A stretch of 64,000 nucleotides of DNA from Candidatus Bathyarchaeota archaeon (GTDB taxonomy: Archaea > Thermoproteota > Bathyarchaeia > Bathyarchaeales > Bathycorpusculaceae). Numbering within the stretch: position 1 is the first letter of the stretch; each line of letters opens with the position of its first letter. This document shows, piece by piece, positions 33,101 to 62,443 of this stretch. Both the position numbers and the translations under genes were made by a program. Under the pieces are notes generated by a model, which was given only the letters and a program-made list of their open reading frames with translations, had not been told where the DNA came from and did not search any database. Location: NCBI GenBank assembly GCA_963702095.1, contig OY969706.1, positions 192,001-256,000 of the forward strand, in the 5' to 3' direction.

Positions 33101-35197
33101 AGGTTTCCAAGCGTAGCACCGGACACGATCACCTGTGCATTAATGGCACTAGAATATTGGATGAATGAACAGATTAAGAATAACAAAAAGACCCCGCAAC
33201 AGCTTTTCAGGGCTGTTTTGATTGACACACAGTCTATTGCCACAGTAGGTGTTTGCGGGTCTGTTGCTTTGGCAAATATCACTGTTTGTCAGGAAACTAT
33301 TTTGCCTATTTTGCAGAACCCAGCATTCTGGATATGCGACAAACAACGGTTAATTGCTGATTCAACAGCTGCAAATTCAGTACAAGCGTTCGCTAAGACT
33401 TTCTCCTTAAATAGACAAAGAGAAAAAAACAATTATCGAATTCTGCTTGAATTAGCGCAACAACCTCACAGAAGGTTAGACTTTAGAGATTTCATTCTAC
33501 GGATTTTACTAGGACCCAAAAGTCTCAGTCAAAAGCTTGTAGAGTCTATGCAGGACTTTCCAAACAAAGTACCTGTATTTTTTGAAGAGGAAAAGCAGAA
33601 CGATGACCTATTAGAGAGCCGCTTAGATGATTGTAAAATTTTGGCAGCCCAAGCTGAAATAAAAAACTATGAAATTTCGGAAATCAATGGGCAAGTTGTA
33701 ATGCAATTCAAAATGCCCTCAGAATTAGAAGAAGAACAAAAAGAACGAACAGCGCGAATTGAAACTAATATTAAGCTATATAATTTTCTTGGTTGGGCAC
33801 TTTCTTCGTTAAATGGTGATAAGAACGTTTCTTTTCCAGATATTGATTCTACCTTTAAGTTTGCTAATGAATTGGTAAGTGAAGATGATCCTAATTACCA
33901 ACCAAAGGACGCTACGGAGTATTCAGAGATGCGGGCTGACGCTATCGCCGCTTTCGCTGCAGCAATAGTGATTAATAACTGGCAATGGATTCAGGACAAT
34001 GAAAAAATTGCGTGGTTCAAAAAACAATTATTAATTGCTGCGACAAGACCCTTACCGCCCTCAGAAATCAACAACCCAATTACTATCTTTCCAATGGGTT
34101 ACCGACGCTCAACTGCACGGGCAATTTGTGTCCTTCAACAAAAAATTAACGATAGAGACGTTAGAAAAAACATTTTGGCTCTATCTATTGATGTTAATAA
34201 TGAAGTAAAATGTTTTCTTTTTAACGGTCTTAAAGGTCTCTGGGTACTTGATTCTAAACTAGTTTGGGAATGCATTGATGCTAATATTAAGAAAGCAAAC
34301 ATTTTTCACGAGTCCAGTAGAAGAATTAGCAATTATTTGCCTACAGAAATAGAGACGGATATTCTTCTACCAGTACTTTGCTGTATTCCATCGGGTAAGG
34401 AAATAACTGAAACATCTCAGGCAAACACTATAATAGATTTTCTTGAACAACTACTGCTTTTTACAATAGCAAGCTATTCTTTTTATCAAGAAAAAGAACA
34501 TGATTACAATCCTTGGGACCACAACGATTGGAATCAGGTCATATTCAGAATAGTGGCCAGTATTGGTCTTCGGATCCCAGATGATATAGCCAAGGCAAAG
34601 TTATTTGACCATATTTTAAAAAACTGGACTAAAAATCCGTCAATGATGGCAACCTTTTTGAGATCATTGCTCTCGGTAGGCTGCACACCTGAACTTGAAG
34701 ACAGACTGGCGAAACTATGGCCGATAATTGGAGATAATATTATTTCAGCGGACCATTCTAGCAATTTATGCGATTTTTCTGAGATAGATAGTTTACTTAT
34801 TTTTGTAGATACACATGGTATTATGTCCTGGAATGTAACGGAATGGAAACCTCTTAGAAGTCTAATACCCTTCATTGAAAAATGGTGCAAAGAACTCGGG
34901 GCTAAGTCAGAATGTTTTCCAAGTTTAGTGAGACTATTAGAGACAATAGGCTTTGAACTGTTTTCTGAATATGGAATAAATTGGCTTTATGATTGTCTGT
35001 CTAGAATCGGCGACAAAGGTTCGGTTTGGCAGCAGGTTTCATTTTCTCTTTCCCAGCTTCTCTCGAATGCTTGGTTTAAACAGAGTGAAAGGATTAAAAA
35101 CGACCCAGAAAGAATGCGTCGTTTTGTTTTCATGGTTGATAAATTAGCAAATCAGGGAGATGCTGCTGCGGTACGATTGCAATCAAAATTGTTGTAA
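30182..35197 (+). CDS. Avs/AVAST-like protein: N-terminal PD-(D/E)xK nuclease, STAND NTPase, long helical C-terminus (start uncertain)
   Basis: In-frame SNPFSTSGSGITFEQ upstream of TTG 30257; LDDIVV...QVKH nuclease motif; EPMTGKS and ILIDGLE Walker motifs; RFSHDVIEDW. Confidence 0.75.
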   Translation, partial: TADNNSTDRNSNPFSTSGSGITFEQLVGTYYLVSLLSQEIPRGIEYGICAEVRFQQRWAGCLLDDIVVVASDGTKEMRLATQVKHDLTISDATTNTVCAEVIDACWKTFNSALWKFNEATDRVCIALGISQPRLDKHFKPILEWARASSDPDEFIQKVSSPGFSSKEKQDYLKIMRNLLGKAKGSDLKNDELWRFLKCLVILDFDLEVEGSRDTTYSWNRLLNCLRRRDYNQAILLFNELNSIVKEYSRCAGSVTLQALSAKIGSKVELNDAPNFSSDLVNLRKHTDLVLSSINDAIGLKIRFTRTELVDKLESAVKQSNVVIISDEPMTGKSGLLKLFANRLRSDGEIIALSVARFTGSSLNAFLQSIQVTNDFEAILSAVGGAPFRCILIDGLERAKDDDKKRVLNDLLLSVGNYNRSILDAKGHNDYCWRIVCTCRSSETQNILLHTEFRKNLANSSLKTIDVGRLSNKEIKEVSQEFPALSDIISKENLKEFTSFPLILDILTLPNITLPSKSLPSKITESWLLNWYWNEIVRLGEGTRYGVGSPEQREKILLALVMKALMGETVCLSDINETEAVSGLISDRLVIKEGNSLRFSHDVIEDWAATVLLKYNENDLCQFLLKFNDNLSLTRPFTLYLAYILEYDRSPDSWFNILNLLEKEKGLSPRYRQSALTVPLISPMILEILPTIQRYLFENSLLLRDFLKVMRTICVTPDPSVYSIFHGLPEEELEKYLAYWTIPNENQWVAVIELLLEKQDIIKGEVLEEFSFICEKWMIGSINHNNQSLRKKIALFSLSVLNDGLLHDYEDQPKNRYILSALYAANCLVEDISQFVQTKALRDSSHENWGFEDLILEQGWIPICRFLPEVATDLLKAILCIDKRNDELEYHDFFELGIRHNHWNPPTYFEGPFLGFLRLHEEKGLELITAIVNHATEVWKKREQYDNRKPLPQILKIDDNTIELWGDDHVYQWYRFPSVAPDTITCALMALEYWMNEQIKNNKKTPQQLFRAVLIDTQSIATVGVCGSVALANITVCQETILPILQNPAFWICDKQRLIADSTAANSVQAFAKTFSLNRQREKNNYRILLELAQQPHRRLDFRDFILRILLGPKSLSQKLVESMQDFPNKVPVFFEEEKQNDDLLESRLDDCKILAAQAEIKNYEISEINGQVVMQFKMPSELEEEQKERTARIETNIKLYNFLGWALSSLNGDKNVSFPDIDSTFKFANELVSEDDPNYQPKDATEYSEMRADAIAAFAAAIVINNWQWIQDNEKIAWFKKQLLIAATRPLPPSEINNPITIFPMGYRRSTARAICVLQQKINDRDVRKNILALSIDVNNEVKCFLFNGLKGLWVLDSKLVWECIDANIKKANIFHESSRRISNYLPTEIETDILLPVLCCIPSGKEITETSQANTIIDFLEQLLLFTIASYSFYQEKEHDYNPWDHNDWNQVIFRIVASIGLRIPDDIAKAKLFDHILKNWTKNPSMMATFLRSLLSVGCTPELEDRLAKLWPIIGDNIISADHSSNLCDFSEIDSLLIFVDTHGIMSWNVTEWKPLRSLIPFIEKWCKELGAKSECFPSLVRLLETIGFELFSEYGINWLYDCLSRIGDKGSVWQQVSFSLSQLLSNAWFKQSERIKNDPERMRRFVFMVDKLANQGDAAAVRLQSKLL

Positions 35198-35332
35198 GGA
35201 GGTCTCCAGAGAAGGCAACGTCCGCGCTACAAAGGCATGTGGCGCCAAAACAGCTATTGTTTATCCGGCTGATGTTTATTTGGTTTCATATTAGTAAAAT
35301 GCTTATATATTATTTTACTTTAATGAAATAAT

Positions 35333-36274
35333 ATGAAAAGTTGCGCTCCCCAATACGCCTTCAACAAAACAGAAATACGGTTGCTTAGGGAGCTCGCTAA
35401 AGGCAAGCAACCGCTCCTACAAATTAAAAGGCTTCTTCAAATAAAACCAGCATTTCTCTCCCGCAATTTGAAAAAGCTCCAGCAGAAGGGAATTATCCAA
35501 ATCGCTGCCGAAGGAAACCAAAAAACCGCATATTTTAGTGAAACTAAGCACGCTTCTCTTCTCAGGGACTTGTTGTTATCCTACGATTTTATGGAGTGGG
35601 AAAACATACTTAGTGGGAAATCAATTGAAATCCTTTTCCGAGCCCTCGATGATGGCGATTTATCAAGTTTTTCAGGCGCTACACTTTGGCGCTACCTCAA
35701 AGAACTTAAAGCAAGAGGCATAATCACAGAAACTCAGAAAGGATACATAATCAATACGCGCTTCGTGATCCTCGCAGATTTCCTAAAAGAATACGAGCGA
35801 TATTTTGTTAACAAGATTTCCAAGACTCTCTCTGAAAACTCTGTTATCCTTTGGCAAAAGGACATGGAATTTCTAGTCAGAGCACCCAAAGCTGTGAAGC
35901 CGCCGTCTGAAGACTTCCATAAAACCGCTACCTCAATCTTCGCTCAATATGATCTTCCGCTTTTCTCAGAATTTGACACCTACTTTTACTCAACAAACAA
36001 AAGAGCAATCAAACCTGAGGATGCTATACTGCATACGCTTGTTGTAGAACCGGGCAATGTGCGATACACAACTTACGCTCTTTTGCTGCTTAAAAAAACC
36101 GAAAAGGAAATCGACAAAACATATTTACTCAAGGAATCTGAAAGATTTAGGCTTAAAAATCAAGTTATCGGTATGCTTGAATTCTTAGAGACTCACACGC
36201 GCCCCGAAGGCCAACCACTACCATTTTGGAACGAATTTATCGCAAAAGCCAATGATTATAAGGTGACGGCGTAA
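35333..36274 (+). CDS. Tandem winged-HTH protein, putative antitoxin/regulator
   Basis: Two wHTH patterns (LSRNLKKLQQKGII; LWRYLKELKARGII); TAATG coupling to the next gene. Confidence 0.75.
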   Translation: MKSCAPQYAFNKTEIRLLRELAKGKQPLLQIKRLLQIKPAFLSRNLKKLQQKGIIQIAAEGNQKTAYFSETKHASLLRDLLLSYDFMEWENILSGKSIEILFRALDDGDLSSFSGATLWRYLKELKARGIITETQKGYIINTRFVILADFLKEYERYFVNKISKTLSENSVILWQKDMEFLVRAPKAVKPPSEDFHKTATSIFAQYDLPLFSEFDTYFYSTNKRAIKPEDAILHTLVVEPGNVRYTTYALLLLKKTEKEIDKTYLLKESERFRLKNQVIGMLEFLETHTRPEGQPLPFWNEFIAKANDYKVTA

Positions 36275-37116
36275 TGGCTCAAAGACGCTCCTTTGACAAG
36301 AACTATCTCAATCAAGAATTCGACAAACTAAACAAGACAACAAAACAGCCTCTTACACTTTATCTTATAGGCGGAGGCGCCATGGCATTCTACGGTCTGA
36401 AAGCTGCTACAAAAGACATAGACATAATCCTCACCGGCCAAGGCGACCTAAACATCCTGCAAACAACCCTAAAAGCCATAGGCTACATAGAGCCCAACCC
36501 AGTACACATTACTAGAGCTTACAATAAAATGCAAACTAACGCCATACTAGAAAACCAAGACGGTTTCAGATGGGACCTGTTTCTTAGCAAAGTCTGCAAT
36601 GCCCTGACTCTATCTGATGAAATGCAGAAAAGAGCAACCCTACTCTACCAAGGCAGCCGCCTAAAAGTTCTCATTGCTTCAAAAGAAGACCTCTTCCTCT
36701 TCAAAGGAATCACCGAGCGAGAAGCTGATCTGGATGATATACGAATTCTTGCCCAATCGGGACTCAACTGGGAAATCATAAGCCGAGAATGCAAAAGCCA
36801 ATCCGAAGCTTCAGGCGTTTGCTGGGAAGATGCACTCTACCAAAACCTCATCGACCTTAAAGCTAAATACGGCATCGAATCTCCAATCGAAAAACCCCTG
36901 CGGAAAGCTGCAGAACAAAAGATTATTGAAACAACGCTGATAAGGCAAATCCAAAAAGGAAACCACACCGTCAAAAGCATAGCAGAAGAAATCAAGGAGC
37001 CGCAGAATTTTATCAGAGAAGAACTGAAGCGATTAGTAAACAGAGGACTAATTACAACAGATAGATCAAACAAGCCCCATAAATTCTTCATTAGTGAAAA
37101 ACAGGGGCCAAAATAA
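36274..37116 (+). CDS. DUF6036/AbiEii-like nucleotidyltransferase with C-terminal wHTH
   Basis: YLIGGGAM...TKDIDI, DLFLFK, READLDD. Confidence 0.8.
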   Translation: MAQRRSFDKNYLNQEFDKLNKTTKQPLTLYLIGGGAMAFYGLKAATKDIDIILTGQGDLNILQTTLKAIGYIEPNPVHITRAYNKMQTNAILENQDGFRWDLFLSKVCNALTLSDEMQKRATLLYQGSRLKVLIASKEDLFLFKGITEREADLDDIRILAQSGLNWEIISRECKSQSEASGVCWEDALYQNLIDLKAKYGIESPIEKPLRKAAEQKIIETTLIRQIQKGNHTVKSIAEEIKEPQNFIREELKRLVNRGLITTDRSNKPHKFFISEKQGPK

Positions 37117-37184
37117 TGACAAGCAAATTATTAGCCTACTTGCGATAATAACGCTTTAATGCCAATTCAGGGAGAATACGAACA

Positions 37185-37424
37185 ATGAACCTTACAAAAA
37201 GAGAACGCGCCATTCTTCAACTTGCAAAGCAAGGATTAAGCGATTATAAGATAGCACGCAAACTCAAGACAGACCCACCAAGCGTAACCCGCTCACGCAA
37301 GAATGCACACAGAAAACTCGCCAATGCCATAACAGACATTGAATGGGCATCAAAAATAGCGGTTCGCGTTTCAGAATTAGACATAATACCGCGTTGCATA
37401 ACTAATTTCAGTTATTTTTTATAA
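37185..37424 (+). CDS. LuxR-type HTH protein
   Basis: LTKRERAILQLAKQGLSDYKIARKL. Confidence 0.75.
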   Translation: MNLTKRERAILQLAKQGLSDYKIARKLKTDPPSVTRSRKNAHRKLANAITDIEWASKIAVRVSELDIIPRCITNFSYFL

Positions 37425-37566
37425 TCTTCATTTTTTAGGTTTAAAAGGAAAAATAATGCCCAATGTTTTTAAAATAAATGACATTATACTCAGATCACTA
37501 CCAGATAGTTCTTTAAATAGGCAAAATTTATCTATCAATTAAGCTTATACAAGCACTAAGCTGACG

Positions 37567-39501
37567 GTGACAACTTTGCTTCTATTGTCTGCTCAAATTG
37601 AGAACTTTAAATCAATTGACAGCTCTAACGAATTTTCTGTCAAACCAGTAACTTGTCTTGTAGGAAAAAACGAAGCGGGAAAAACTACCATACTTCAAGC
37701 ATTGTACAAATTAAACCCGGATATTCCCGAAAAAGGTAACTTTGATGGATTGTTTGATTATCCTAGACGAAAGTGGTCATCGTATAAAGAGCGCAAAGAA
37801 GCTCAGCCAGATAATGTGTTAACAACAAAATGGGAATGTCAACCTTCCGACATTAAAGAATTGGAAGAAAAATTTGGACAAAACATACTAAAAAATAACA
37901 TTGTAACGATAACCAAAGGGTATGATAACCAACTGAAATTTCAGGTTGACATTGATGAAAAACAAGTCCTATTAAATTGGGCTAAAGGAAAGTCTTTTTC
38001 AGAAGACGAAACAGCAGAAGTGAGCAAATATACAACTTTTTCTGGCCTCGCTGCTCTAAAGGAAGCAAACCCTACAGAAATTCAAAAGAAAATTCTAAAT
38101 AATTTAGATACAGATTTTCCTAAAGGTCCACAAACTGCCCTTCTGGAGCTATTAAGGAAACGCTTGCCTGTTTTCCTTTTCTTCTCAGATTTCTCTCGAA
38201 TGGCTGGCAAAGTTTCTTTAAATGACCTCCAATCAAGAAAGAATCAAAATCGTATGGAGCAACCTTACAGAATTTTTGAAGCATTATTAAATCTCGCAGG
38301 AACTACAACAGACCAAATGAACGGCATTCAGAATTCTGAAGCTCTCATAGCTGAATTAGAAGCCATTTCCAATCGACTAACTTCAGAAATCTTTGAATAT
38401 TGGAGTCAAAACAAGAACTTGCAAATTGAATTTCGATTCGAGTGCGGCAGACCCCAAGACCCTGCGCCGTATAACAATGGCTATGTTTTTCACACAAGAA
38501 TATTGAATACCCGACATGGGGTAACTGTAGGTTTCGACGAACGTAGTCAAGGTTTTGTTTGGTTTTTTTCATTTCTTGTCTGGTTTTCCCAACTGAAAAG
38601 AGTTTACGGAGACAACCTGTTTATACTCTTAGATGATCCAGGATTAAGTCTACATGCTCGAGCACAAGCAGATTTATTACGATACATTAAGGAGAAGTTA
38701 CAACCACACTATCAAGTTATCTATACAACGCATTCACCTTTTATGATTGACCCAGAAAATTTACAAAACGTTAGAACCGTAGAAGATGATTTAAAATCCA
38801 AAAAAATTCTGGGAACAAAGGTAAGCGAAAAAGTTCTAGGCACAGACCCTGATACCCTTTTTCCTTTACAAGCAGCGATTGGATATGATATAGCGCAGAC
38901 ACTGTTCATAGGTAAAAATACTCTGTTGGTCGAAGGGCCTTCAGACCTACTCTACCTTAAGCTCTTTTCAAAAGAACTGGAAAGCGCTGGAAGAACACAT
39001 TTAGACTCCAAATGGGCCATAACGCCTTGTGGTGGTGTAGAAAAAATCGCGAGTTTTATGGCTCTGTTTAAGGGCAACAATCTCAATGTCGCAGTACTAA
39101 CAGACTTACATAAAGGCATTAAAACAAGAATTAGAAGCCTTCAGGAGTCCGAAATTCTCAAAGCAGGGCACATTTTTACCGCTGATATGTATGCAGGAAA
39201 AGAAGAAGCCGATATTGAGGACATAATTGGGCGGTCCAACTATATTAAAATAGTAAACGATTGCTACACACTCGATAAAACTCATCAAATGCCTGAAGAG
39301 AACAAACTCGATTCCTCGAAAACAGTACTTGAAGAAGTGGAAACCTACTTGAAAGCAAACGTTCCGGATTTAGAATTTAATCATTATACGCCTGCAATGT
39401 TTCTAACCGAGAATAGAAAAGAACTAAAAACACTACCACAAATAAGCGAAGCTCTGGACCGTTTTGAAAAACTATTCAAAAGCCTAAATGCTTTATTTTA
39501 A
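37567..39501 (+). CDS. OLD-family-like ABC ATPase-TOPRIM nuclease
   Basis: IENFKSI, GKNEAGKT, RSQG, ILLDDPGLSLH, TTHSPF, LLVEGPSD. Confidence 0.85.
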   Translation: MTTLLLLSAQIENFKSIDSSNEFSVKPVTCLVGKNEAGKTTILQALYKLNPDIPEKGNFDGLFDYPRRKWSSYKERKEAQPDNVLTTKWECQPSDIKELEEKFGQNILKNNIVTITKGYDNQLKFQVDIDEKQVLLNWAKGKSFSEDETAEVSKYTTFSGLAALKEANPTEIQKKILNNLDTDFPKGPQTALLELLRKRLPVFLFFSDFSRMAGKVSLNDLQSRKNQNRMEQPYRIFEALLNLAGTTTDQMNGIQNSEALIAELEAISNRLTSEIFEYWSQNKNLQIEFRFECGRPQDPAPYNNGYVFHTRILNTRHGVTVGFDERSQGFVWFFSFLVWFSQLKRVYGDNLFILLDDPGLSLHARAQADLLRYIKEKLQPHYQVIYTTHSPFMIDPENLQNVRTVEDDLKSKKILGTKVSEKVLGTDPDTLFPLQAAIGYDIAQTLFIGKNTLLVEGPSDLLYLKLFSKELESAGRTHLDSKWAITPCGGVEKIASFMALFKGNNLNVAVLTDLHKGIKTRIRSLQESEILKAGHIFTADMYAGKEEADIEDIIGRSNYIKIVNDCYTLDKTHQMPEENKLDSSKTVLEEVETYLKANVPDLEFNHYTPAMFLTENRKELKTLPQISEALDRFEKLFKSLNALF

Positions 39502-48971: not shown

Positions 48972-49183
48972 GCTTGAGACCCGATGAAGTTTGAAATCGA
49001 TAAAACGAGTGTTGTTTTTCAGTAAAGTTAGTCTTGCGTTTCCTTTAAACCTAACGTTCTCTCGCAACTTATAGCCTTCCATTTTAGTGCTTACACGAAC
49101 CCATCGCAATCAAACAATCCCACGTTTCTTTATATGACGCTTTTCTTTTTTTGAATATTTTAAACAAAAAAATAGATTATGGT

Positions 49184-49342
49184 TTATTTCCACAGCTTTT
49201 TTCCAGTCAGCAGCCAAATGACTACAAAGATTACGGCAATCACGAGCAGTATATGTATCAATGCGCCTACGCCTGGCAAAGCAAAGAACCCAATCAGCCA
49301 AAGTATCACAACAATGATTGCAATCGTCAACCAGGTATTCAT
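49184..49342 (-). CDS. lmo0937/DUF5670-like small membrane protein (not in ORF track)
   Basis: MNTWLTIAIIVVILWLIGFFALPGVGALIHILLVIAVI. Confidence 0.8.
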   Translation of the reverse strand: MNTWLTIAIIVVILWLIGFFALPGVGALIHILLVIAVIFVVIWLLTGKKLWK

Positions 49343-49356
49343 AGCAAACGCTCCAA

Positions 49357-49647
49357 CTAAGCCTCAACTACTGGTCTTAGGTACATGTGAAGCTGATCTT
49401 TTGATACTTTTAAGTGTAGACCCTTCTCTGTCCAGCGTGCAACCCCTTTTTCTAAGGCTGAAACGGCTAACATGTTTCGTACTCCACCTTTCTTTGCGCC
49501 AAGTACTGATTCAGCTATGCTCTTTTCTAATTCAATTTCAAGATGAGTAATCTTCCACTCTTCAGGATCAATTTCTATTTCTTTTACTTTGCCGATTTTC
49601 TCGTCTAACGCAAAAACATCTTTATCCATAAATTCTTTACTTTTCAT
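49357..49647 (-). CDS. PRC-barrel protein
   Basis: DVF..DEKIGKVKEIEIDPEEWKI; GGAGGG SD. Confidence 0.85.
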   Translation of the reverse strand: MKSKEFMDKDVFALDEKIGKVKEIEIDPEEWKITHLEIELEKSIAESVLGAKKGGVRNMLAVSALEKGVARWTEKGLHLKVSKDQLHMYLRPVVEA

Positions 49648-49720
49648 ACTATTTACCCCTCCTCGGTATACCCCTGATTTGAGATGTCATAAACATGGTC
49701 ATTGGCAGAGTTAAGCGCTT

Positions 49721-49742
49721 GTGACTGCGAGCCCACACCGAC
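49721..49742 (-). promoter_or_regulatory. Regulon palindrome 1 (PRC-barrel promoter)
   Basis: GTCGGTG-N8-CAGTCAC then 6 nt to TTAACT. Confidence 0.75.
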
Positions 49743-50049
49743 AGACTGACCGTTGAGCCTTAGAAAGAATTTGAAACTTGAAAACAAATAAAAAATGAAT
49801 TCTCAGGTTAGTCTTCAGCTTTTTCAATCAGGCTCAAAAACTTGTTGTCAGAGGTTGGTTTTTCTCATAAAACGCTTCAATCTTCATCTCAAAAGATTGC
49901 CAAGTGATGATGTTTTAATTTGGGAGAAAACTGCTTCTAAACAGCTCGGAAGGCTATTTCGACTAATATCGTGTTCCCCGGGATGTGGACCAAAAAGCGC
50001 ACGGCTGCACACAGTTCTGGCTAAATAAAAAAAGAAAGAAAAGTTAGGT

Positions 50050-51045
50050 TTAGGTTACTGCAGTGGTTTGATCGATTATTTTTGCTTGTGGAGCATTCGT
50101 CTTTACTGATGCTATGCCATTTTCAGCTGACTGTTTGGATAGGTAGGATTGGCTTACAGCAATTATCTGTCCAGTAGCAGCTTTCAAACGGAAACGATAT
50201 CTATCAGGTGCATTGCATTGAATTTCAAAAACCGGGGATTCAACAATTTCAACGTGGTGAACGGGTATAGTTCCACCTGTTGTGTAATCAGTGGTCTTAG
50301 CTATTGGAGCATTCTTTTTTATTGAAGCAATACCTTTTAGAGCATTCTCTCTTGTCCCGTACGAGTGGCTTACAGCAATTATCTGTCCGTTAGCAGCTTT
50401 CAGATGGAAACGGAATCTACCGGCAATATCACATATAACCTCAAAGACACCTGTCACTTTCGCTACTACCGGAATCGGTTCAGTTATCACTTCAGTGGGC
50501 GGCAATGGTTCCTCAACTGGTAAGATGGGTTCTGGGATTTTATCAGTTGCGTGACCCTTCTGTGTATGAGCATTCATTTCGTAAGTAGTCATGAAGCCCA
50601 ATCCGCATATAGGACATGTTAGATCCATATTTGGCATAAGTACGCCATTCAAAACGTGTATTATGCCGTTGTCTGTTACAATGTCTGTGTTTATCATGTG
50701 TGCATCATTGATTAACGGGTTATAGTGAGAAGTCCACCAGTGGGCGGCGTCAATTTTAACCTCTTGGCCTTGGAAAGTTTTCATGTTTTTCATTTGACCT
50801 ATTTCGTCTACTGTGAACTTTCCTACTACAATATGGTACATCAGAATCGCCTTGAGCTTTGGAATATTTTTCAATAGTCCCTCGACTGTACCTGCAGGAA
50901 GCTTTGCAAAAGCATCATCATTTGGCGCAAAAATTGTAAACGGTCCTTTGCGTTTCAATGTTTCAACTAATCCGGCCGCTTGGACTGCGGCTACAAATGT
51001 TGTGAAGCCCCCGGCTTCAACAGCAATATCAAATATATCTGCCAT
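50050..51045 (-). CDS. Fasciclin + C2H2 finger + two YegP/DUF1508 domains
   Basis: GPFTIFAPNDDAF, NGIIHV; CPIC..H...H; two FRLKAANGQIIAVS..Y..GIAS.K.NAP repeats. Confidence 0.88.
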   Translation of the reverse strand: MADIFDIAVEAGGFTTFVAAVQAAGLVETLKRKGPFTIFAPNDDAFAKLPAGTVEGLLKNIPKLKAILMYHIVVGKFTVDEIGQMKNMKTFQGQEVKIDAAHWWTSHYNPLINDAHMINTDIVTDNGIIHVLNGVLMPNMDLTCPICGLGFMTTYEMNAHTQKGHATDKIPEPILPVEEPLPPTEVITEPIPVVAKVTGVFEVICDIAGRFRFHLKAANGQIIAVSHSYGTRENALKGIASIKKNAPIAKTTDYTTGGTIPVHHVEIVESPVFEIQCNAPDRYRFRLKAATGQIIAVSQSYLSKQSAENGIASVKTNAPQAKIIDQTTAVT

Positions 51046-51118
51046 TTATTTTCATCTCTTCAAAACAGTTTTCAAGTTTTATCTGAGTTGTAATGGTGTT
51101 CTTATAATAAATAACTGT

Positions 51119-51140
51119 GTGACTGGGGAGCCCCAGCAAC
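51119..51140 (-). promoter_or_regulatory. Regulon palindrome 2 (fasciclin promoter)
   Basis: GTTGCTG-N8-CAGTCAC then 4 nt to TTATTTAT. Confidence 0.78.
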
Positions 51141-51207
51141 GGGATGGCAAGCTACACGTAAAAGGGCTAATCGATTTGAAGCGACCGGAGAAATTAGATT
51201 TCTCGGG

Positions 51208-51993
51208 TTAGCTTTCAGCTTTTTGCCAGTCAGACTCAAAACTTGTTCTAAGCACACCAATAAGGTTGCGGTTGTTTGTCCACAAAGAAGGGCTTTCGCC
51301 TAATCCGCTTTCTTTGGAGGTGGTAATCAATGCTTCTTTATCATCAGACATTATGAAGTGATTTAAGGCTTCACGATGAAACCTGATTTGAACCGAAGCG
51401 ACACCAATGAATTTTTTCACTTGTTCTATTAGCAAACCATCTGGGCTTTCTCCTTCAAAAAGTAGTCGAACCTGAGTACCTTCCTTTATTGCCAGTCTGT
51501 ATTCATCTGAAAACTGAGCCAAAATGGGCATGATTCTCGTCTTGTCTGCAATCAAAGCGACTTCTTTTCGTGAGTTATTAATCAGACCTGAGGTCTTTGT
51601 TAAAATTGATTTCTTTTCCGCTATCAGTATGTAGATGCTTTCTTCTCCAAGAGACTGTTGCTTCCACTCTTTGAGGGATAGTTTCTGGACCCTGCTCCTC
51701 ATATCCGTCAACCGTTCCTCGGCTCTGTTTTTTTCTTTCGCCAGTAGTAAAGCCAAGGAATCAGAAATAAGAGTAGCCCGGACCTCAGTTGGTTTACCCA
51801 GCAATCTTTCAACCAAACCCATTTTTTCGAGTGCTGGCAGAAGCCTATAGACGTCTTCCCTGCGCACTTTTGAAAATTTTGCTACTTGTCCTACCGTGGT
51901 TTTTTCCAGTTTAAGTATTGCTAAGTAAACCTTTGCCTGATTAAGAGTCAACCCCAAACCAAGCAGGAGTTCCGTGTTTTCGTCGTTAGCCAT
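51208..51993 (-). CDS. TrmB-family transcriptional regulator
   Basis: LGLTLNQAKVYLAIL...VRREDVYRLL..LEKMGLV; C-terminal effector domain ending FESDW. Confidence 0.88.
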   Translation of the reverse strand: MANDENTELLLGLGLTLNQAKVYLAILKLEKTTVGQVAKFSKVRREDVYRLLPALEKMGLVERLLGKPTEVRATLISDSLALLLAKEKNRAEERLTDMRSRVQKLSLKEWKQQSLGEESIYILIAEKKSILTKTSGLINNSRKEVALIADKTRIMPILAQFSDEYRLAIKEGTQVRLLFEGESPDGLLIEQVKKFIGVASVQIRFHREALNHFIMSDDKEALITTSKESGLGESPSLWTNNRNLIGVLRTSFESDWQKAES

Positions 51994-52348
51994 TCCCGAC
52001 TTCCTATTATTTTTTTGTCTAAATTTATATTTATTTTTTTCGGTTGCTTGCTCCTTCAACTGTTAATTCGCATCAACAATTATGAATCCTCATCTACAAT
52101 GTTAAAATGACTCGCAGGTACTCACAGGACTAAACTGCAATAGGTTTGCATACGATAGTCCGTAATCAGGTTGGATGTTTGAATTAAAAAGAATCACCTA
52201 CAAACACCAAACTCTAAAAAAGTACTTCCAAAGAAAAGGAGTATAGCCGATTGGGATGCAACTAATCTTTTTTTAACTACTGAGGTATTGTTAAGGTTCG
52301 TTTCCTTGCCATTCTTGAGGAAATTAGCAAGAAAATTTTTTTCATTTT

Positions 52349-54097
52349 TTAGATTGCTTTTTTGGCGGTGAAATCCTTTTTATATTTATCCATTTTATCC
52401 TTGAAGACTTTTTTATCAGTATCTTTTTGTTCTTCGAAATCGCTCTTGTCGCTGTCAGTTTTTTCCCTAAAGTCTTTTTTGTCACTGCCTTTCTGTTCAT
52501 TGTAGTCGCTTTCGTTATTATCGCGCACTGTCTCGAAGTCTTTTTTGTCGCTATAGGTTTTTGCCTTAAAATCTTTCCTGTGAATATCCCTTTGGGCCAT
52601 CCGTTTACTTTTGTCGTTGCCAGTTTTGTCCTCAAAATCTTTTTTGTCTATGTCTTTTTGTTGGTTGTACTCTTTTTGGTTATTATCGCGCAGTTTCTCA
52701 AAATCCTTCCTTTGACCGTCGATTCTTTCTTCAAAATCTTTTCTGTCGCTATCTCTTTTTTCCTTGTAGTCGTTTTCGTTATTGCTGCTTAGTTCCTCAA
52801 AGTCCCTTTTGTCACATTCAGTTTTTTGTTTAAAATCTTTTCTATGAATATCCCTTTGCGCTAGCCATTTACTTTTGTCCTCACCTGTTTTATCCTCAAA
52901 ATCCTTCTGGTTGCTGTCTTTTTGAGTTTTGTATTCATTTTCGTTATTGTCGTTTTGTTCTTTGAAGTTCTTTTTGTCGATATCAGTTTTTTCCTTAAAA
53001 TCACTTTGATTACTGTCAATTTGTTCTTTGAAAACTTTTTTATCTCTTTTATTTTTCTCTTTAAGTGCTTTATTCAACAGCTTTTCAGCAGCAGTTCCTA
53101 ATCCATACATTTCAAAAAAGATGAATGATAAAACGAATACAAACCAAAAACTCGCAAACCCCCATAGTAGACTTGAAGCTTGCGCCATGGAGATATTTAT
53201 GCCGAGAACTTGATAGATGCCACTGGAAACTATTTGTGAGAAACCTGTTAATGCTATGCCTTGATTGCTTATAGTGCTAACTATGGTATTTGTGATTATA
53301 ATTTTGTCAAAGCCTATGAAGGAGCCAAGGGAAATGAAAACAAGGTACAAAGCTGCAATACTGCAAATCCAAGTCATGGTTTGAAAAATCATGGGTTTTA
53401 CCATACTTTTTGGTTTTTCCTTTATAATCATTACTACATCATGAAAATTAGCTATTTGAACAACAATCTTTTCTCCAAATTCGACATCAGTTTTTTTGTG
53501 CTTTATTTTAGCAATTACTTGAACAAGAAATTGAAGAAGCTTTTTAGTTACTGAAATATTTGTGCTCAAATAAACTATCAAAATGAGCGGCAGCGCAAAA
53601 AACGCCATAGTTACTCCAATAGCAACTAAAACGAAAGTGTCAATTGAATAATTCAATATTAACAGAAACATTCCCACTATCAAGGCCAAAAGAGTGACTA
53701 AAAGCTCAAGAATATCTTTGACTATTACTGAAGCCGCTACTTTAACTACATCAACACCTTCATCTCCGCCCAAAAGATAAGTCATGAAGATATCCCCCGA
53801 CCAACCCCCAATTATAAGGCAATCAAGAAAAGCGCCAACCCAACCCAGACAAAAAACCCTCTTAAACGTAGTTTTAACAGCAACATTATCAAGAGTAGCT
53901 TTCCAAGCCAATGAATTGAACGCTGCTTGACCTATAACAAGCAAAAAAACCAAGGCGTAAACTGGAATACTTACACCGCTAATTATTATTGCAACTTTTG
54001 TAAGATCTGTAAAGAAAAAAAGGTAGACAACAAAAATTATAAAACCTACTATGGCAAGTAGGCTTACCCATTTCTTAATTTCTGGTCTATTTGACAA
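52349..54097 (-). CDS. LPG-synthase TM/flippase-like (UPF0104) membrane protein with C-terminal 11-residue repeats
   Basis: About 8 TM segments with AWK/GGWSGD pattern; 21 hendecad repeats at 52352-53044. Confidence 0.75.
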   Translation of the reverse strand: MSNRPEIKKWVSLLAIVGFIIFVVYLFFFTDLTKVAIIISGVSIPVYALVFLLVIGQAAFNSLAWKATLDNVAVKTTFKRVFCLGWVGAFLDCLIIGGWSGDIFMTYLLGGDEGVDVVKVAASVIVKDILELLVTLLALIVGMFLLILNYSIDTFVLVAIGVTMAFFALPLILIVYLSTNISVTKKLLQFLVQVIAKIKHKKTDVEFGEKIVVQIANFHDVVMIIKEKPKSMVKPMIFQTMTWICSIAALYLVFISLGSFIGFDKIIITNTIVSTISNQGIALTGFSQIVSSGIYQVLGINISMAQASSLLWGFASFWFVFVLSFIFFEMYGLGTAAEKLLNKALKEKNKRDKKVFKEQIDSNQSDFKEKTDIDKKNFKEQNDNNENEYKTQKDSNQKDFEDKTGEDKSKWLAQRDIHRKDFKQKTECDKRDFEELSSNNENDYKEKRDSDRKDFEERIDGQRKDFEKLRDNNQKEYNQQKDIDKKDFEDKTGNDKSKRMAQRDIHRKDFKAKTYSDKKDFETVRDNNESDYNEQKGSDKKDFREKTDSDKSDFEEQKDTDKKVFKDKMDKYKKDFTAKKAI

Positions 54098-54233
54098 TAT
54101 TTACTCAATACCTGTTGTCTGCCTAGTGTTTCACGCATTTCAGTACCTATTCAGTGTTAATTGTGAAGTGGGGGTCAAATCCTTAGCTCGTGTGCGCTAT
54201 CTTGCGTTATTACTGTCAAACTTACATTTGCTG

Positions 54234-54434
54234 TTATGCTTTCTTTGGTTTTATGCTAAGTTTAACGTTAATCTCAATGGTGTATTCTTTGTCCGTGTTT
54301 CCAACAGCGAAGTTCCAGTTCTTCACCTCTACGTCCATATCCTTAAAATGATTCATTAAAGAATTCTTATATTCACTAACGGTCTGGCCCATATTCTGCA
54401 ACCGTTCAGTTATGTCTATATTTTTTTCAGTCAT
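54234..54434 (-). CDS. Small hypothetical protein
   Basis: GAGG SD; own promoter with regulon palindrome. Confidence 0.7.
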   Translation of the reverse strand: MTEKNIDITERLQNMGQTVSEYKNSLMNHFKDMDVEVKNWNFAVGNTDKEYTIEINVKLSIKPKKA

Positions 54435-54498
54435 TCAAATACGCCTCTAAAACTCCAATTTATACAACCGTTAACCTGCACATTGCTCTTAAGGCTAT

Positions 54499-54520
54499 GT
54501 CGCTGGGAACTAACACCTAC
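54499..54520 (-). promoter_or_regulatory. Regulon palindrome 3
   Basis: GTAGGTG-N8-CAGCGAC then 6 nt to TTAAGA. Confidence 0.72.
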
Positions 54521-54753
54521 AAGTAAATTACAAATTCCGGTACATGAAAATTTTCTGTGAGATTACACTTTCTATCCCAGATCAACGCATGAGAATTTTC
54601 TTTGCAAAAGAAAAGTTACAGGACCATTTTTGAATCGTATCTGAAAAAGGTTCAAGACTGACTCAAAGAGCCTCAATGACCCTGCCTAAGGTGTGTTTTG
54701 AGCATATTTAGAGGGATATAACTTTTTAGCGGTGAAATGGATGTGGCAGGGCT

Positions 54754-54775
54754 GTAGCTGTTAGTTACCAGTCAC
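54754..54775 (+). promoter_or_regulatory. Regulon palindrome 4 (holin-like gene promoter)
   Basis: GTAGCTG-N8-CAGTCAC then 5 nt to TTAAAA. Confidence 0.78.
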
Positions 54776-54819
54776 ACACCTTAAAATTTCAAAGCATCTC
54801 CTTTGAAGCAGGAAAATAG

Positions 54820-55179
54820 ATGTCTGTAAAATTTTCACTAAGTGAAATAATCGCTGCAATCCTAAATGAAATCAAAGAGGCACTCAAAGAATACGCCAAT
54901 CAAGCGGAAGTCGCCTTCAAAAAACGCATCAAAAAACTCTTAATAATAAGCATAGTCGGCGCCGTCTTGATGTCGCTGGGAATCTCACTCGCTGGGTCAG
55001 CAGCCCTGTTCATCCTCATTGGCTCACTAAGATACCTAGAAACCTCTATGCCCGCATGGCAAGCCTGGCTCATCATGGGAACCACCTCCGCCATCGCAGC
55101 AGCAGCACTATTCACAGTGCTCTTTCTAACAATAAGAAAACAGTTATCCTCACCCAAAGTGCCGCCTGAACAAAAATAA
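54820..55179 (+). CDS. Two-TM holin-like (DUF1469/YqjE-like) membrane protein
   Basis: Amphipathic N-terminal helix, two TM segments, MPAWQAWLI. Confidence 0.65.
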   Translation: MSVKFSLSEIIAAILNEIKEALKEYANQAEVAFKKRIKKLLIISIVGAVLMSLGISLAGSAALFILIGSLRYLETSMPAWQAWLIMGTTSAIAAAALFTVLFLTIRKQLSSPKVPPEQK

Positions 55180-55379
55180 GGCGCCTACTCTTTTTATTGA
55201 CATTTTCTGAGTCCAATCAGCATTTTGAATTTTTGCCTCTTTATTTCTTGGTGATGAGAAAAACAATGAATTCATGCATAATTTCTACGAAAAGCGAAAA
55301 CAGTCGATTAGTTTGAGGGGTAAAGGAACTATAAATACCCATTGATATAAAAATAATTGAAGTCCAGATTGAAAATCTT

Positions 55380-55401
55380 GTAGCTGTAGGGCCCCATTCA
55401 C
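55380..55401 (+). promoter_or_regulatory. Regulon palindrome 5 (no long ORF downstream)
   Basis: GTAGCTG-N8-CATTCAC then 4 nt to TTATTTAT. Confidence 0.7.
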
Positions 55402-55729
55402 AAAGTTATTTATCCAAAATTAAGCATTAGGTGGAATTGCTTTGGCGGATCAGCGTTAAACAAGATGCGAATGGTTTGTAACCCCTGTTCCTTCTCGAAT
55501 GTTCGCGTTCTGATGGCGTGTGTAGGTCCGCCAAAAATATTCTAAGTCACTTGCGGTTTATCAAGAGACTTATTTGCGCAATCCAAGTTTTGCCGATCTT
55601 AGCAACTGTTATTTCTGAAAAAAAAGCTTAAACAAAAAAGGACAAAGAAAGCAAGTTAAGATTTCGCCGCTTGTAAATTGATTAGCCGTACCACAACCTT
55701 TCGCAAACAGATAAAAAAGATGGGCGTTG

Positions 55730-56099
55730 TTATCTTGCCAGCAAACCGCCTATGAATCCGCCGATCGTTGACGCGATCGCTCCAAAGATAGCAAGGATAA
55801 TCGCTATTACTCCAACTGCCAGCCCAGCCAAGCCGCCGAAAAGCGCCGCCCATAATCCCGCCGGAGACTCCTCCAATAACTGCGAGACCGACGACTGCGA
55901 GGAGGGTAATTATGATACCGCCGAATATGCCTGCGAGGAAACCAGCTAATGCGCCTGTCAATATGCCGCCGCGTGCTATGATGCCTGCTACAAATCCGCC
56001 TATTAACCCACCTATCAAATGTCCAATGCCCGGAAACAGCCAACCAAGAACTAATGTTATGAGGAAACCAACTAAAGCTCCAAGCCACAAACTTCCCAT
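55730..56099 (-). CDS. DUF5518-like Gly-rich membrane protein, frameshifted at a T4 run (~55840)
   Basis: IGGLIGGFVAG...GALAGFLAGIFGG; removing one T restores ...STIGGFIGGLLAR*. Confidence 0.75.
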
Positions 56100-56181
56100 A
56101 AAATCACCACCTTTTTTCCAATCAGAAAATTTTTGTCCATAAAACAACATACAACATTACAATTGCGTTTGAATGCTAAGT

Positions 56182-56508
56182 TTATGAGAATATGAAGCCT
56201 ATGATTACACCTGCTATGAGTCCAATGCCTAGCGGTAGCATGCCTATGAGAAGTACCCCGTATTGAACTACTATGGAACCATATGTGTCTGATAGGCCTT
56301 TCAACGCCCCAAGACTCAAACCGAAAAAGCCGAAGTAGCTAACTACCAAGAGTATAATCGCAGCAATAATAGCAATCTTTAGCATTTTGTGGGCTAGATA
56401 GCCGACGACTAAGCCAAGAATGAATGGAATAATCATTAACACAATTGGCGGCAAACCGCCTATGCTCCCGGAAGTAATAAACTGAATTACTTCATCTATC
56501 GCGCCCAA
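56182..56508 (-). CDS. FUN14-like membrane protein
   Basis: GLVVGYLAHKMLKI...GLIAG; GGAG SD plus TTG. Confidence 0.7.
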   Translation of the reverse strand: MGAIDEVIQFITSGSIGGLPPIVLMIIPFILGLVVGYLAHKMLKIAIIAAIILLVVSYFGFFGLSLGALKGLSDTYGSIVVQYGVLLIGMLPLGIGLIAGVIIGFIFS

Positions 56509-56561
56509 AATCTACAACTCCACAGTTAAGCCATAGTAGTATAAATGGCTATTAAGCCTGT

Positions 56562-56583
56562 GTAGCTGGGGCTCCCCAGCAAC
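56562..56583 (-). promoter_or_regulatory. Regulon palindrome 6 (FUN14/DUF5518 promoter)
   Basis: GTTGCTG-N8-CAGCTAC then 6 nt to TTAATA. Confidence 0.78.
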
Positions 56584-56829
56584 AGAGCGGTGTGCTGTTT
56601 GGGGAATTCAGGGGCGTAGCGATTTAGACTAAAACTCAGCTTATTCTCTTCAGGGAAAAGTTTTTAGCGTTTTCTTTGTTGTCTCTGTTTTTTACCAGTA
56701 GACCATTTGCCCGTTTGGGATTCTCCTAGTTTGCGGGGCTCTTTTTTGTTCTCGTGTGAGTATCTTGGCGGTTGCTTTTTTATATGGGGTGTTTGCGGGG
56801 TTGTTTCTTGCTTTTCTGCATTTTCTTTC

Positions 56830-57147
56830 TCATTCATGCTCTTTTACCTCAGCTCTGTCTTCGCTGTAATCTCTATCCTCATGGGCTTCTTCTTCCACTT
56901 CATCCTGCAACGCTTCTTCACGTCCGCTTGCTTCTTCACCTTCAACGCTTGCCCTGTCTTCAGCCTGACCTTTCGGCGGATACACCTTATCCAACCAAAC
57001 CTCAAACTGTACCTTATATTCAGAGCTCGAAAAGGCCCAATCGCATAATCCACCAATGACTTTACTAACGTCAATATCGTGATCGTCAGCTAACGCTTTT
57101 AGAAAATTCGCCCAATTTACAGGTAAAGGAACTGAAGAACTACTCAT
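56830..57147 (-). CDS. Hypothetical protein with acidic C-terminal tail
   Basis: GGAG SD plus ATG; Glu/Asp-rich tail. Confidence 0.65.
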   Translation of the reverse strand: MSSSSVPLPVNWANFLKALADDHDIDVSKVIGGLCDWAFSSSEYKVQFEVWLDKVYPPKGQAEDRASVEGEEASGREEALQDEVEEEAHEDRDYSEDRAEVKEHE

Positions 57148-57447
57148 AAATAGAATCTCCAGTAACCTTATTACTGTTAAGGAATATTTAAGCTTCTTAA
57201 GCACTTGAAAATAGAGTCAACCGAGAAAAATCGACCTAATTGCTAAACGAGTTTAAATCTCCGTGTGGCAATATATAGGCTGTAAGTCAGCGGTTTTGGA
57301 ACAGCAAAATGATAGCCCCCAATCTCTTACTGATCAAATCTATCTTATTCGGCATGACTCCAAAACATGAGCGATCCCCCAAAATTTCGTAGAAAAGCTG
57401 ACTAAGTTAAAAAAATCATTAATGAATAATACCGAGGAAAAAATAAC

Positions 57448-61492: not shown

Positions 61493-62443
61493 ATGACTCT
61501 AATTCAAGAAGTTCCAAAAACACCTCAACGCTTAGTTGAGAAGTGCCCTGAATGTGCCGGCAAAAATCTTGTCCACGACTATGATACCGGCGAAACCATC
61601 TGCGGCGACTGCGGCCTCGTTTTATATGAGCAGATGTTCGATAAAGGCCCCGAGTGGCGAGCGTTTACCCAGCAAGAGAAAGCCTCACGAAGCCGAGTTG
61701 GTATGCCAACATCTTATTCAGTTCACGATAAAGGATTATCCACAACTATCAGTCAAATTGACAGAGATGCCTTTGGAAGAAAGCTTCCTCTTTCCACGAG
61801 GTTGCAGATGTGGCGCCTTAGGAAGTGGCAAATACGAAGCCGTGTGCACTCCTCTGTTGACCGCAACCTAGCACAAGCTATGGCTGAACTTGACCGTTTA
61901 TCGGGCAAAGTAAATGCTTCGCCGCCAATCAAAGAACAAGCCGCACTTGTTTACAGAAGAGCACTCGATAGAGGCTTAGTCCGTGGAAGATCCATATCTG
62001 GCGTTGCTGCTGCCTCGTTATATGCTGCTTGCCGCAAAAGTGGGTTACCCCGATCCCTTAGGGAAATCGCTGAGGCAAGTCTGGTGAATAGGAAAGATGT
62101 TGCACGCTGCTACCGTTTGCTGTTGCAGGAGCTTGATTTTCATATGCCAATTTCTGACCCTTTGACATACGTTTCGAAGATCGCTGAGAAAAATGGTATT
62201 TCAGGCAAAACACAGGGCGCTGCCATAGCGATACTTAGGGAAGCAAGAAAACAGCGGGTTGCGTCAGGAAAAGATCCAATGGGCATGGCGGCGGCTTCAC
62301 TCTACATAGCTTGTCTGCAGAATAATGAAAAGATAACGCAGAAAGACATTGCAGAAGCAGCCGGAGTCACTGAGGTTACGGTTAGAAACAGATACAAGGC
62401 GCTAAAGAAGCAGCTAAAACTTGAACTACCTGAAAAAGCCTGA
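61493..62443 (+). CDS. tfb: Transcription initiation factor IIB
   Basis: CPEC..CGDC zinc ribbon, GPEWRAF B-reader, two cyclin repeats, GVTEVTVRNRY. Confidence 0.97.
   Translation: MTLIQEVPKTPQRLVEKCPECAGKNLVHDYDTGETICGDCGLVLYEQMFDKGPEWRAFTQQEKASRSRVGMPTSYSVHDKGLSTTISQIDRDAFGRKLPLSTRLQMWRLRKWQIRSRVHSSVDRNLAQAMAELDRLSGKVNASPPIKEQAALVYRRALDRGLVRGRSISGVAAASLYAACRKSGLPRSLREIAEASLVNRKDVARCYRLLLQELDFHMPISDPLTYVSKIAEKNGISGKTQGAAIAILREARKQRVASGKDPMGMAAASLYIACLQNNEKITQKDIAEAAGVTEVTVRNRYKALKKQLKLELPEKA

Follow-up and report, generated by a model that had tools for sequence, protein, structure and literature searches.

A TATA-registered palindrome marks a putative genus-wide stress-type regulon in Bathyarchaeia, with a TrmB clade as its plausible reader

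We report that a palindrome of 22-24 bp, here called the box, is a real promoter-linked cis element held in fixed register with the TATA box in a genus of Bathyarchaeia. It came to attention in a 64,000-nucleotide stretch of a Candidatus Bathyarchaeota archaeon genome (contig OY969706.1, positions 192,001 to 256,000; hereafter the window), where an earlier note on this DNA had described six copies around a gene for a TrmB-family regulator and had proposed a regulon under its control. The window corresponds to C1:192001-256000 of the source genome, G000, a single contig of 2,937,366 bp. Judged from its sites and from the genes behind them, the box appears to be a real operator, embedded in promoters across the genus and serving a stress-type regulon more general than the six-promoter proposal. 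A link to the embedded TrmB is plausible in view of the deep conservation of box and TrmB clade together, and this TrmB is not sufficient to explain the box.

The pattern GTNRSTG-N8-CAKYNAC matches the window exactly at the six sites listed in the note (nine strand matches). In 100 dinucleotide shuffles it occurs 0.09 times on average and at most twice, a lenient control given that the pattern was written from these same sites. Box 1 (49721..49742, minus strand, 21.8 bits) stands 73 nt upstream of the start of a PRC-barrel gene, with TTAACT 6 nt past its core. Box 2 (51119..51140, minus, 23.2 bits) stands 73 nt upstream of a fasciclin-DUF1508 gene, Box 3 (54499..54520, minus, 20.5 bits) 64 nt upstream of the gene for a 66-aa protein, and Box 4 (54754..54775, plus, 25.1 bits) 44 nt upstream of a holin-like gene. 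Box 5 (55380..55401, plus, 24.1 bits) lies in the promoter of a unit without an open reading frame (ORF), and Box 6 (56562..56583, minus, 27.5 bits, the best in G000) 53 nt upstream of the gene for a 108-aa membrane protein. The proposed spacing to a TTAA/TTAT sequence was borne out in all six copies, where it follows 4-7 nt past the core on the side of the nearest gene; core and start codon are 44-73 nt apart.

Across G000 the same pattern occurs 22 times. A position weight matrix (PWM) grown from the six window sites gives 40 matches of at least 17 bits in G000 and 0 in the reversed genome, and 67 versus 10 at 15 bits or more, counts that are partly circular since the matrix was trained on the matches it scores. 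It converges on a longer box, tGT[GT][AG][CT]TG-N8-CA[AG][CT][AC]ACa, with conserved half-sites and with a centre (N8) and flanks that are free to vary. Neither location nor register entered the training of the matrix: 31 of the 40 stronger matches are intergenic, compared with 14.5% of the genome, both figures resting on the gene calls of a crude in-house gene caller. At 34 of the 40 sites a TATA-like box lies 4-8 nt past the core on at least one side, as it does at 18.9% of 20,000 random intergenic positions. The spacing is tight, with a mode of 6 nt (exactly 6 nt on 19 of 36 promoter sides, 5-7 nt on 32). A refined pattern, TGTDRYTG-N8-CARYHACA with at most one mismatch, gives 53 matches in G000, 43 of them intergenic, and 4 in the reversed control. 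This genome-wide scan, the intergenic bias and the TATA register support the six palindromes first seen in the window. The share of T at half-site position 5 is 0.03-0.04 near trmB genes and 0.25-0.37 elsewhere; these sites are orthologous copies, and we draw no conclusion about two sub-motifs.

The position of the box at orthologous promoters is conserved as well, as the note had predicted. The source lineage, judged by its close relatives, is one of Bathyarchaeia metagenome-assembled genomes (MAGs) from peat and soil. The box precedes 32 of 32 orthologues of the 108-aa membrane protein gene (median distance 53 nt), 28 of 29 of the PRC gene (73 nt), 19 of 29 of the DUF5670 gene (47 nt), 10 of 14 of the holin-like gene (52.5 nt), 6 of 15 of the 66-aa protein gene (65 nt) and 3 of 4 of the fasciclin-DUF1508 gene (71 nt), orthologous sites that are not independent of one another. 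Two neighbouring genes show nothing of the kind: the box is found at 0 of 7 orthologues of the LPG_synthase_TM gene, the flippase gene that had been named as a possible target, and at 0 of 13 orthologues of p105, which encodes a 105-aa protein.

With the refined pattern, the count reaches 26-65 boxes in 20 of 24 sampled genomes of the same genus (control: 0-6). The other four are poor in boxes: G006 (5 versus 4 in the control), G018 (2 versus 3), G024 (9 versus 5) and G011 (8 versus 0, at 58% completeness). In other families, 16 genomes contain 0-9 each. The box regulon is thus genus-wide and not private to the window cluster, and the idea of a regulon defined by six promoters around one TrmB has to be given up. 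Boxes are nevertheless concentrated there: the surroundings of trmB orthologues (79 loci, 1,054,184 bp) hold 270 matches of at least 15 bits, a density 12-fold above the genome average (67 in 2.94 Mb in G000).

The 108-aa membrane protein gene, for which we keep the working name FUN14-like, occurs in 19 of 24 relatives, which rules it out as a TrmB-linked accessory. Its promoter has a box in one of the five genomes checked that lack the TrmB clade described below, and also, by coordinates, in G020. The promoters of G017 (L459) and G001 (L460) differ in that the box of G017 has decayed to a remnant, still 52 nt from the start as is usual; those of G008, G014 and G018 have no box. The sequence TTTAATAG is kept in G017, G008 and G001 and TTTAATAA in G018, and the upstream region of G014 differs. 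Box turnover thus varies from one promoter to another.

The genes behind the boxes are of the stress and envelope type that the note had anticipated, in the window, in G000 and in the relatives. In the window, Pfam supports a PRC-barrel protein (49357-49647, minus; 21.9 bits, cut-off 21.2) in one unit (49184..49647) with a small DUF5670 membrane protein (49184-49342, minus), and a protein in which a fasciclin domain is joined to two DUF1508 (YegP-like) domains (50050..51045, minus) by a C2H2-like linker that we read from the translation. The 66-aa protein downstream of Box 3 is encoded at 54234-54434 (minus) and the holin-like membrane protein, whose Pfam match falls below the cut-off (23.7 versus 28.4 bits), at 54820-55179 (plus). 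The FUN14-like gene (56182-56508, minus) is followed by a DUF5518 gene (55656-56099, minus; Pfam). The target names given earlier hold for PRC, DUF5670, fasciclin with two DUF1508 and DUF5518, and not for FUN14, a family for which Pfam gave no match at E<=0.01 in 56182-56508. Of the genes said to adjoin the island, Hsp20 and TFB were found by search, and the thermosome is read from sequence only.

Elsewhere in G000 the box precedes two operons with five KGG/LEA-like hydrophilins, an operon with a P-type ATPase, TreT and a phosphoenolpyruvate (PEP) synthase-like gene, a PPDK-like gene, an LPG_synthase_TM paralogue, a GT4-GH127-like-CBS operon, BrkB, AHSA1 and UPF0047, three stand-alone RAM-domain proteins, two small C2H2 proteins, an HTH_45 protein, ABC transporters and many small proteins not assigned to any family. 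Flavodoxin-2xDUF1508, bPH_3, dodecin, CsbD and GT2 genes recur as further targets in the surroundings of trmB orthologues. KGG/YciG-GsiB-like proteins, CsbD, PRC-barrel, DUF1508/YegP, bPH, dodecin and trehalose synthesis are families of bacterial general-stress regulons. By analogy, the targets of the box resemble such a set, and by gene content one control element here stands before many stress-protectant promoters.

Several of these families vary in ways worth recording. DUF1508 pairs occur with varied heads, either fasciclin with the C2H2-like linker or flavodoxin (50050-51045; L017:2494-3432; L218:13200-13934), and fasciclin is also found with a C2H2 finger alone. Several of the stand-alone RAM (AsnC ligand-binding) proteins, at G000:1490321-1493455 and elsewhere, are box targets. 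The LPG_synthase_TM membrane protein of the window (52349..54097, minus; Pfam), without a box of its own, has a long K/D/E-rich tail of about 250 aa (52349-53100, minus), with repeats of the form KKDFE...K(T/S)D; its paralogue at G000:1624494 is box-controlled.

The regulator among the six promoters (51208..51996, minus) is a protein of 262 aa with the recognition helix KVRREDVYR. It has an N-terminal winged helix-turn-helix (wHTH) of the TrmB type (Pfam PF01978, 52.9 bits, cut-off 25.6), its match to the C-terminal effector/sugar domain Regulator_TrmB (PF11495) falls short of the cut-off (20.4 versus 22.2 bits), and a profile of the solved TrmBL2 matches residues 3-260 (E 5e-11). It is one TrmB among many, G000 having 18 matches to the family. 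The clade to which it belongs travels with the box across distant archaea. From close to distant members the helix (KVRRE[DE]VYR) and wing do not vary, and the remainder of the protein, C-terminal half included, goes down to 33-38% identity. In 16 of 23 distant clade loci a box of at least 13 bits lies upstream of the trmB start itself, at 57-62 nt in 15 of them and at 75 nt in one, in a MAG labelled Promethearchaeota (Asgard); another of these 16 loci comes from a MAG labelled Nitrososphaeria. Where boxes are few they gather at trmB genes: in G041 (complete, 1.7 Mb) 6 of the 11 perfect boxes are no farther than 2 kb from one of its two trmB genes, and in G042 4 of 6. In G036 a 22.6-bit box stands 59 nt upstream of a related TrmB with an IRREE helix; this genome has a single pattern match, which may be that site. 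The invariant helix and the boxes at the distant trmB starts make the embedded TrmB a credible reader, and we consider it very probable, from these sequence patterns, that the KVRRE[DE]VYR clade reads the box. Clade trmB genes are multi-copy in several MAGs (L013-L091), with three copies on one contig in L037, L046 and L062.

Within the genus the association breaks down, and a series of observations weighs against the clade as reader of the box. A DNA-binding domain of at least 55% identity is found only in G000, G002, G003, G013, G016 and G019, with a fragment in G012. The clade was not found in G001, G014, G008, G010, G023 or G017, and in the first five of these the best identity to the 42-aa helix-wing segment is at most 50%. 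Clade trmB genes often sit at contig ends in short-read assemblies, so that absence from fragmented MAGs is unreliable, a caveat that does not apply to G014 (one contig) and G001 (nine contigs). Boxes persist in these genomes at 64 in G001, 38 in G014, 61 in G010, 63 in G023 and 42 in G008, and at 26-64 across the clade-lacking genomes once G017 is included. The PRC box stays in place, at 72-77 nt, in every one of the 6 close orthologues from clade-lacking genomes (G001, G010 with two copies, G020 with two copies, and G023), and islands of CsbD, DUF5670, holin-like, fasciclin-DUF1508 and GT4-CBS genes occur in G001 with no TrmB. The aligned upstream regions of 54 close orthologues of the window trmB show a strong TATA box and no box; the weaker copy that the note had placed at 52056-52077 (minus), upstream of trmB, scores 5.4 bits and is not conserved in this alignment, so that autoregulation through it finds no support. 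To these points are added the partial circularity of the matrix and the dependence among orthologous sites. Since clade-lacking genomes and their PRC promoters keep their boxes, control can neither require the embedded TrmB nor lie with it alone, and the same comparison of sequences implies that another reader besides the TrmB clade must exist in the genus. The interpretation offered in the note thus stands in part: the clade accompanies the box in distant archaea, and within the genus boxes also occur without it.

The same evidence can be taken further, to a genus in which some other factor alone reads the box and the embedded TrmB is a resident or target of the island that recognises something else; in distant lineages, trmB would then be a conserved member of that factor's regulon. 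The equal numbers of boxes with and without the clade, the retained PRC boxes, the TrmB-free islands of G001 and the close trmB orthologues without their own box would all follow. It accounts poorly for a recognition helix that stays invariant when the C-terminal halves diverge, for a box at a fixed distance from trmB in distant loci and for the clustering at trmB genes where boxes are few, and no candidate for such a factor fits. We regard this account, with its extension to distant lineages, as possible and on balance doubtful.

Several candidates for the other reader were tried and rejected. The box-preceded HTH_45 protein (G000:1186592, L092) has an orthologue in only 9 of 24 relatives; of 10 orthologue loci, nine have a box some 60-90 nt upstream by PWM and the tenth, of G017, has one by pattern match, and 0 of 5 HTH_45 genes in G022 have a box nearby. 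Another, strongly conserved type of HTH_45 protein (G000:1454300) comes without a box, and none was seen in G017. Box-less G006 has the universal TrmB (G000:2847554-2848336) too, with an identical helix, and other TrmB paralogues, of a second clade (L008-L012), lack boxes. The distribution of full-length Lrp/AsnC proteins does not tell box-bearing genomes apart from box-less ones. Stand-alone RAM-domain proteins do follow the box in number (about 9, 7, 5, 1 and 0 in G000, G001, G017, G006 and G018, by ORF length) and have no DNA-binding domain. TFB paralogues, numbering 5, 3, 2, 2 and 2 in the same genomes, show no link to it, and the small C2H2 protein L133 is patchy (12 of 24 relatives). Four of the TFB paralogues of G000 (window 61493-62443; G000:577935, 2106746 and 2921527) share 79-84% mutual identity and the fifth has 47%; relatives hold 2-3 TFBs.

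The explanation that we prefer takes the palindrome as a putative docking site, built into the promoter, for a dimeric DNA-binding regulator. The core runs from about -58 to -36, with its centre near -47, and ends 5-7 nt before the TATA box, so that a bound factor would most likely help TFB and TBP to load, that is, activate. The box would join some 40-65 promoters per genome into one regulon in this genus, with members that may include KGG/LEA-like, CsbD, PRC-barrel, DUF1508/YegP, DUF5670, dodecin, bPH and small membrane proteins, a trehalose synthase with PEP synthase, glycosyltransferases, RAM-domain proteins, a small wHTH protein and a small-RNA candidate. The window would be one dense island of this regulon, which may constitute a general stress, desiccation or dormancy programme, and its readers would be the TrmB clade encoded in the window and at least one other factor. 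The sites, their register and conservation, the target families and the association of clade and box are observed; that a protein binds, in which direction it regulates and that stress is the signal are what we infer. Taken as a whole, it seems to us evenly poised between right and wrong.

Activation is favoured because the tight register fits contact with TFB/TBP and because TrmBL1 and TFB-RF1 act from similar positions. TrmBL1 activates from upstream of the TFB-recognition element (BRE) and TATA box and represses from downstream (PMC4706686). The palindrome of TFB-RF1 precedes a weak BRE by a conserved distance, and the mechanism described is activation by recruitment of TFB (PMC5937170). 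Simple activation meets an objection in the position of the box: its proximal flank, CACA, falls on the upstream half of the BRE, overlapping positions -8 to -5, and a factor bound in contact with the BRE might just as well keep TFB off. Nor is weakness of the BRE clear here, the region being C-rich at -3 to -1 and A-rich at -6 to -4 as in ordinary promoters. The bound factor might accordingly be a repressor that covers the upstream BRE half and bars TFB until a stress signal or sugar effector arrives, a proposal that differs from ours in sign only. At the trmB genes of distant clade members a TATA-like box comes first, then the box, then the start, which is a repressing geometry, if one in which the TATA may serve a divergent gene; and TrmB of P. 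furiosus is described as repressing by steric hindrance of TBP/TFB (PMC4706686). The narrow spacing to the TATA box suits stereospecific contact better than occlusion, and TrmBL1 repressor sites lie downstream of TATA (PMC4706686). We hold repression to be unlikely, if a serious contender.

Far less probable is that the embedded TrmB is master of a private regulon of six promoters. The packing of six boxes into 7.4 kb around trmB and the raised density at its orthologues speak for it; the genome-wide and genus-wide spread of the box, conserved independently of the TrmB clade, speaks strongly against. The idea that no protein reads the palindromes, and that they arose by copying of a repeat or mobile promoter cassette or match by chance, finds nothing in its favour beyond their clustering and is close to negligible given half-sites conserved around a variable centre and flanks, sites at orthologous promoters across species and reversed-sequence controls near zero.

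The unit behind Box 5 contains a candidate structured small RNA of about 100 nt with no ORF (55439..55537, plus), a hairpin closed by UUUGGCGGAUC...GGUCCGCCAAA. Eight loci share 71-84% identity over about 160 nt, RNAalifold predicts a single long hairpin of 30 pairs, three of them with compensatory change, and the folding z-score is -3.19. Rfam 15 gave 0 covariance-model matches at E<=0.1 in window positions 49000-57400. The unit is a candidate for a stress-regulated small RNA. Two further loci deserve mention. Upstream of the island, at 30257-39501, lies a defence-like block with a 1646-aa protein that has a weak nSTAND3 match, a wHTH with an HVO_2833-like C-terminal domain, a DUF6036 nucleotidyltransferase with a helix-turn-helix (HTH), a LuxR-type HTH and an OLD-like AAA_15-TOPRIM protein. 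At G000:1625976-1626983 (L105, L106) an Old Yellow Enzyme-type flavin mononucleotide oxidoreductase is split into ORFs of 84 and 246 aa that cover profile positions 2-80 and 89-340, which may reflect a frameshift or an assembly error.

To our knowledge almost nothing is known about gene regulation in Bathyarchaeia, an abundant group without cultured members. A literature search found no link of Bathyarchaeia to a TrmB regulon or promoter motif, the one match for Bathyarchaeia and TrmB concerning proviruses. Among the titles and abstract openings found, none describes an archaeal general stress regulon with CsbD and PRC-barrel proteins. The box yields a list of about 50 putatively co-regulated promoters per genome, a concrete and testable regulator-operator pair with TrmB, and a prediction of the genes that these archaea may use against drying, freezing and starvation in peat. 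Genomes with and without the TrmB clade offer a natural experiment on a regulon that would have survived a change of reader. We would go further only tentatively, and lean somewhat against it: these soil and peat archaea may have their own equivalent of the bacterial general stress response, in which one promoter-embedded box switches on about 50 genes, for hydrophilins, PRC-barrel, YegP and dodecin proteins, trehalose synthesis and a small RNA. The box would have redundant readers, in that an ancient TrmB clade has kept its operator from Asgard to Bathyarchaeia and a new factor has taken over where TrmB was lost.

Among known systems, the nearest is TrmBL1/Tgr with the Thermococcales glycolytic motif TATCAC-N5-GTGATA of Pyrococcus and Thermococcus. 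Both pair a TrmB-family protein (here a putative reader) with a palindrome at tens of promoters, and the box regulon includes gluconeogenic and trehalose-type genes (PEP synthase-like, TreT). The position relative to BRE and TATA sets the effect in TrmBL1 (PMC4706686); here the site precedes a TATA-like box in 34 of 40 cases, and the reverse order is seen only at distant clade trmB genes, where it is ambiguous with a divergent promoter. The box differs from the glycolytic motif in length (22-24 bp) and in half-sites (GTGACTG), its regulon consists mostly of stress hydrophilins and small membrane proteins and not of sugar catabolism, and it survives in genomes without the matching TrmB clade. 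In Pyrococcus furiosus, TFB-RF1 (PF1088) also uses a palindrome, of 13 nt, at a short conserved distance upstream of BRE and TATA (PMC5937170). The fixed distance is shared, and a weak BRE is not clear from base composition here; TFB-RF1 serves two operons against about 50 promoters, and belongs to another protein family with another motif. Set beside the bacterial sigma-B, RpoS and EcfG regulons, the box regulon is built differently, with an operator beside an archaeal TATA box, no alternative sigma factor and TFB paralogue numbers that do not track the box. What it has in common with them is the target families.

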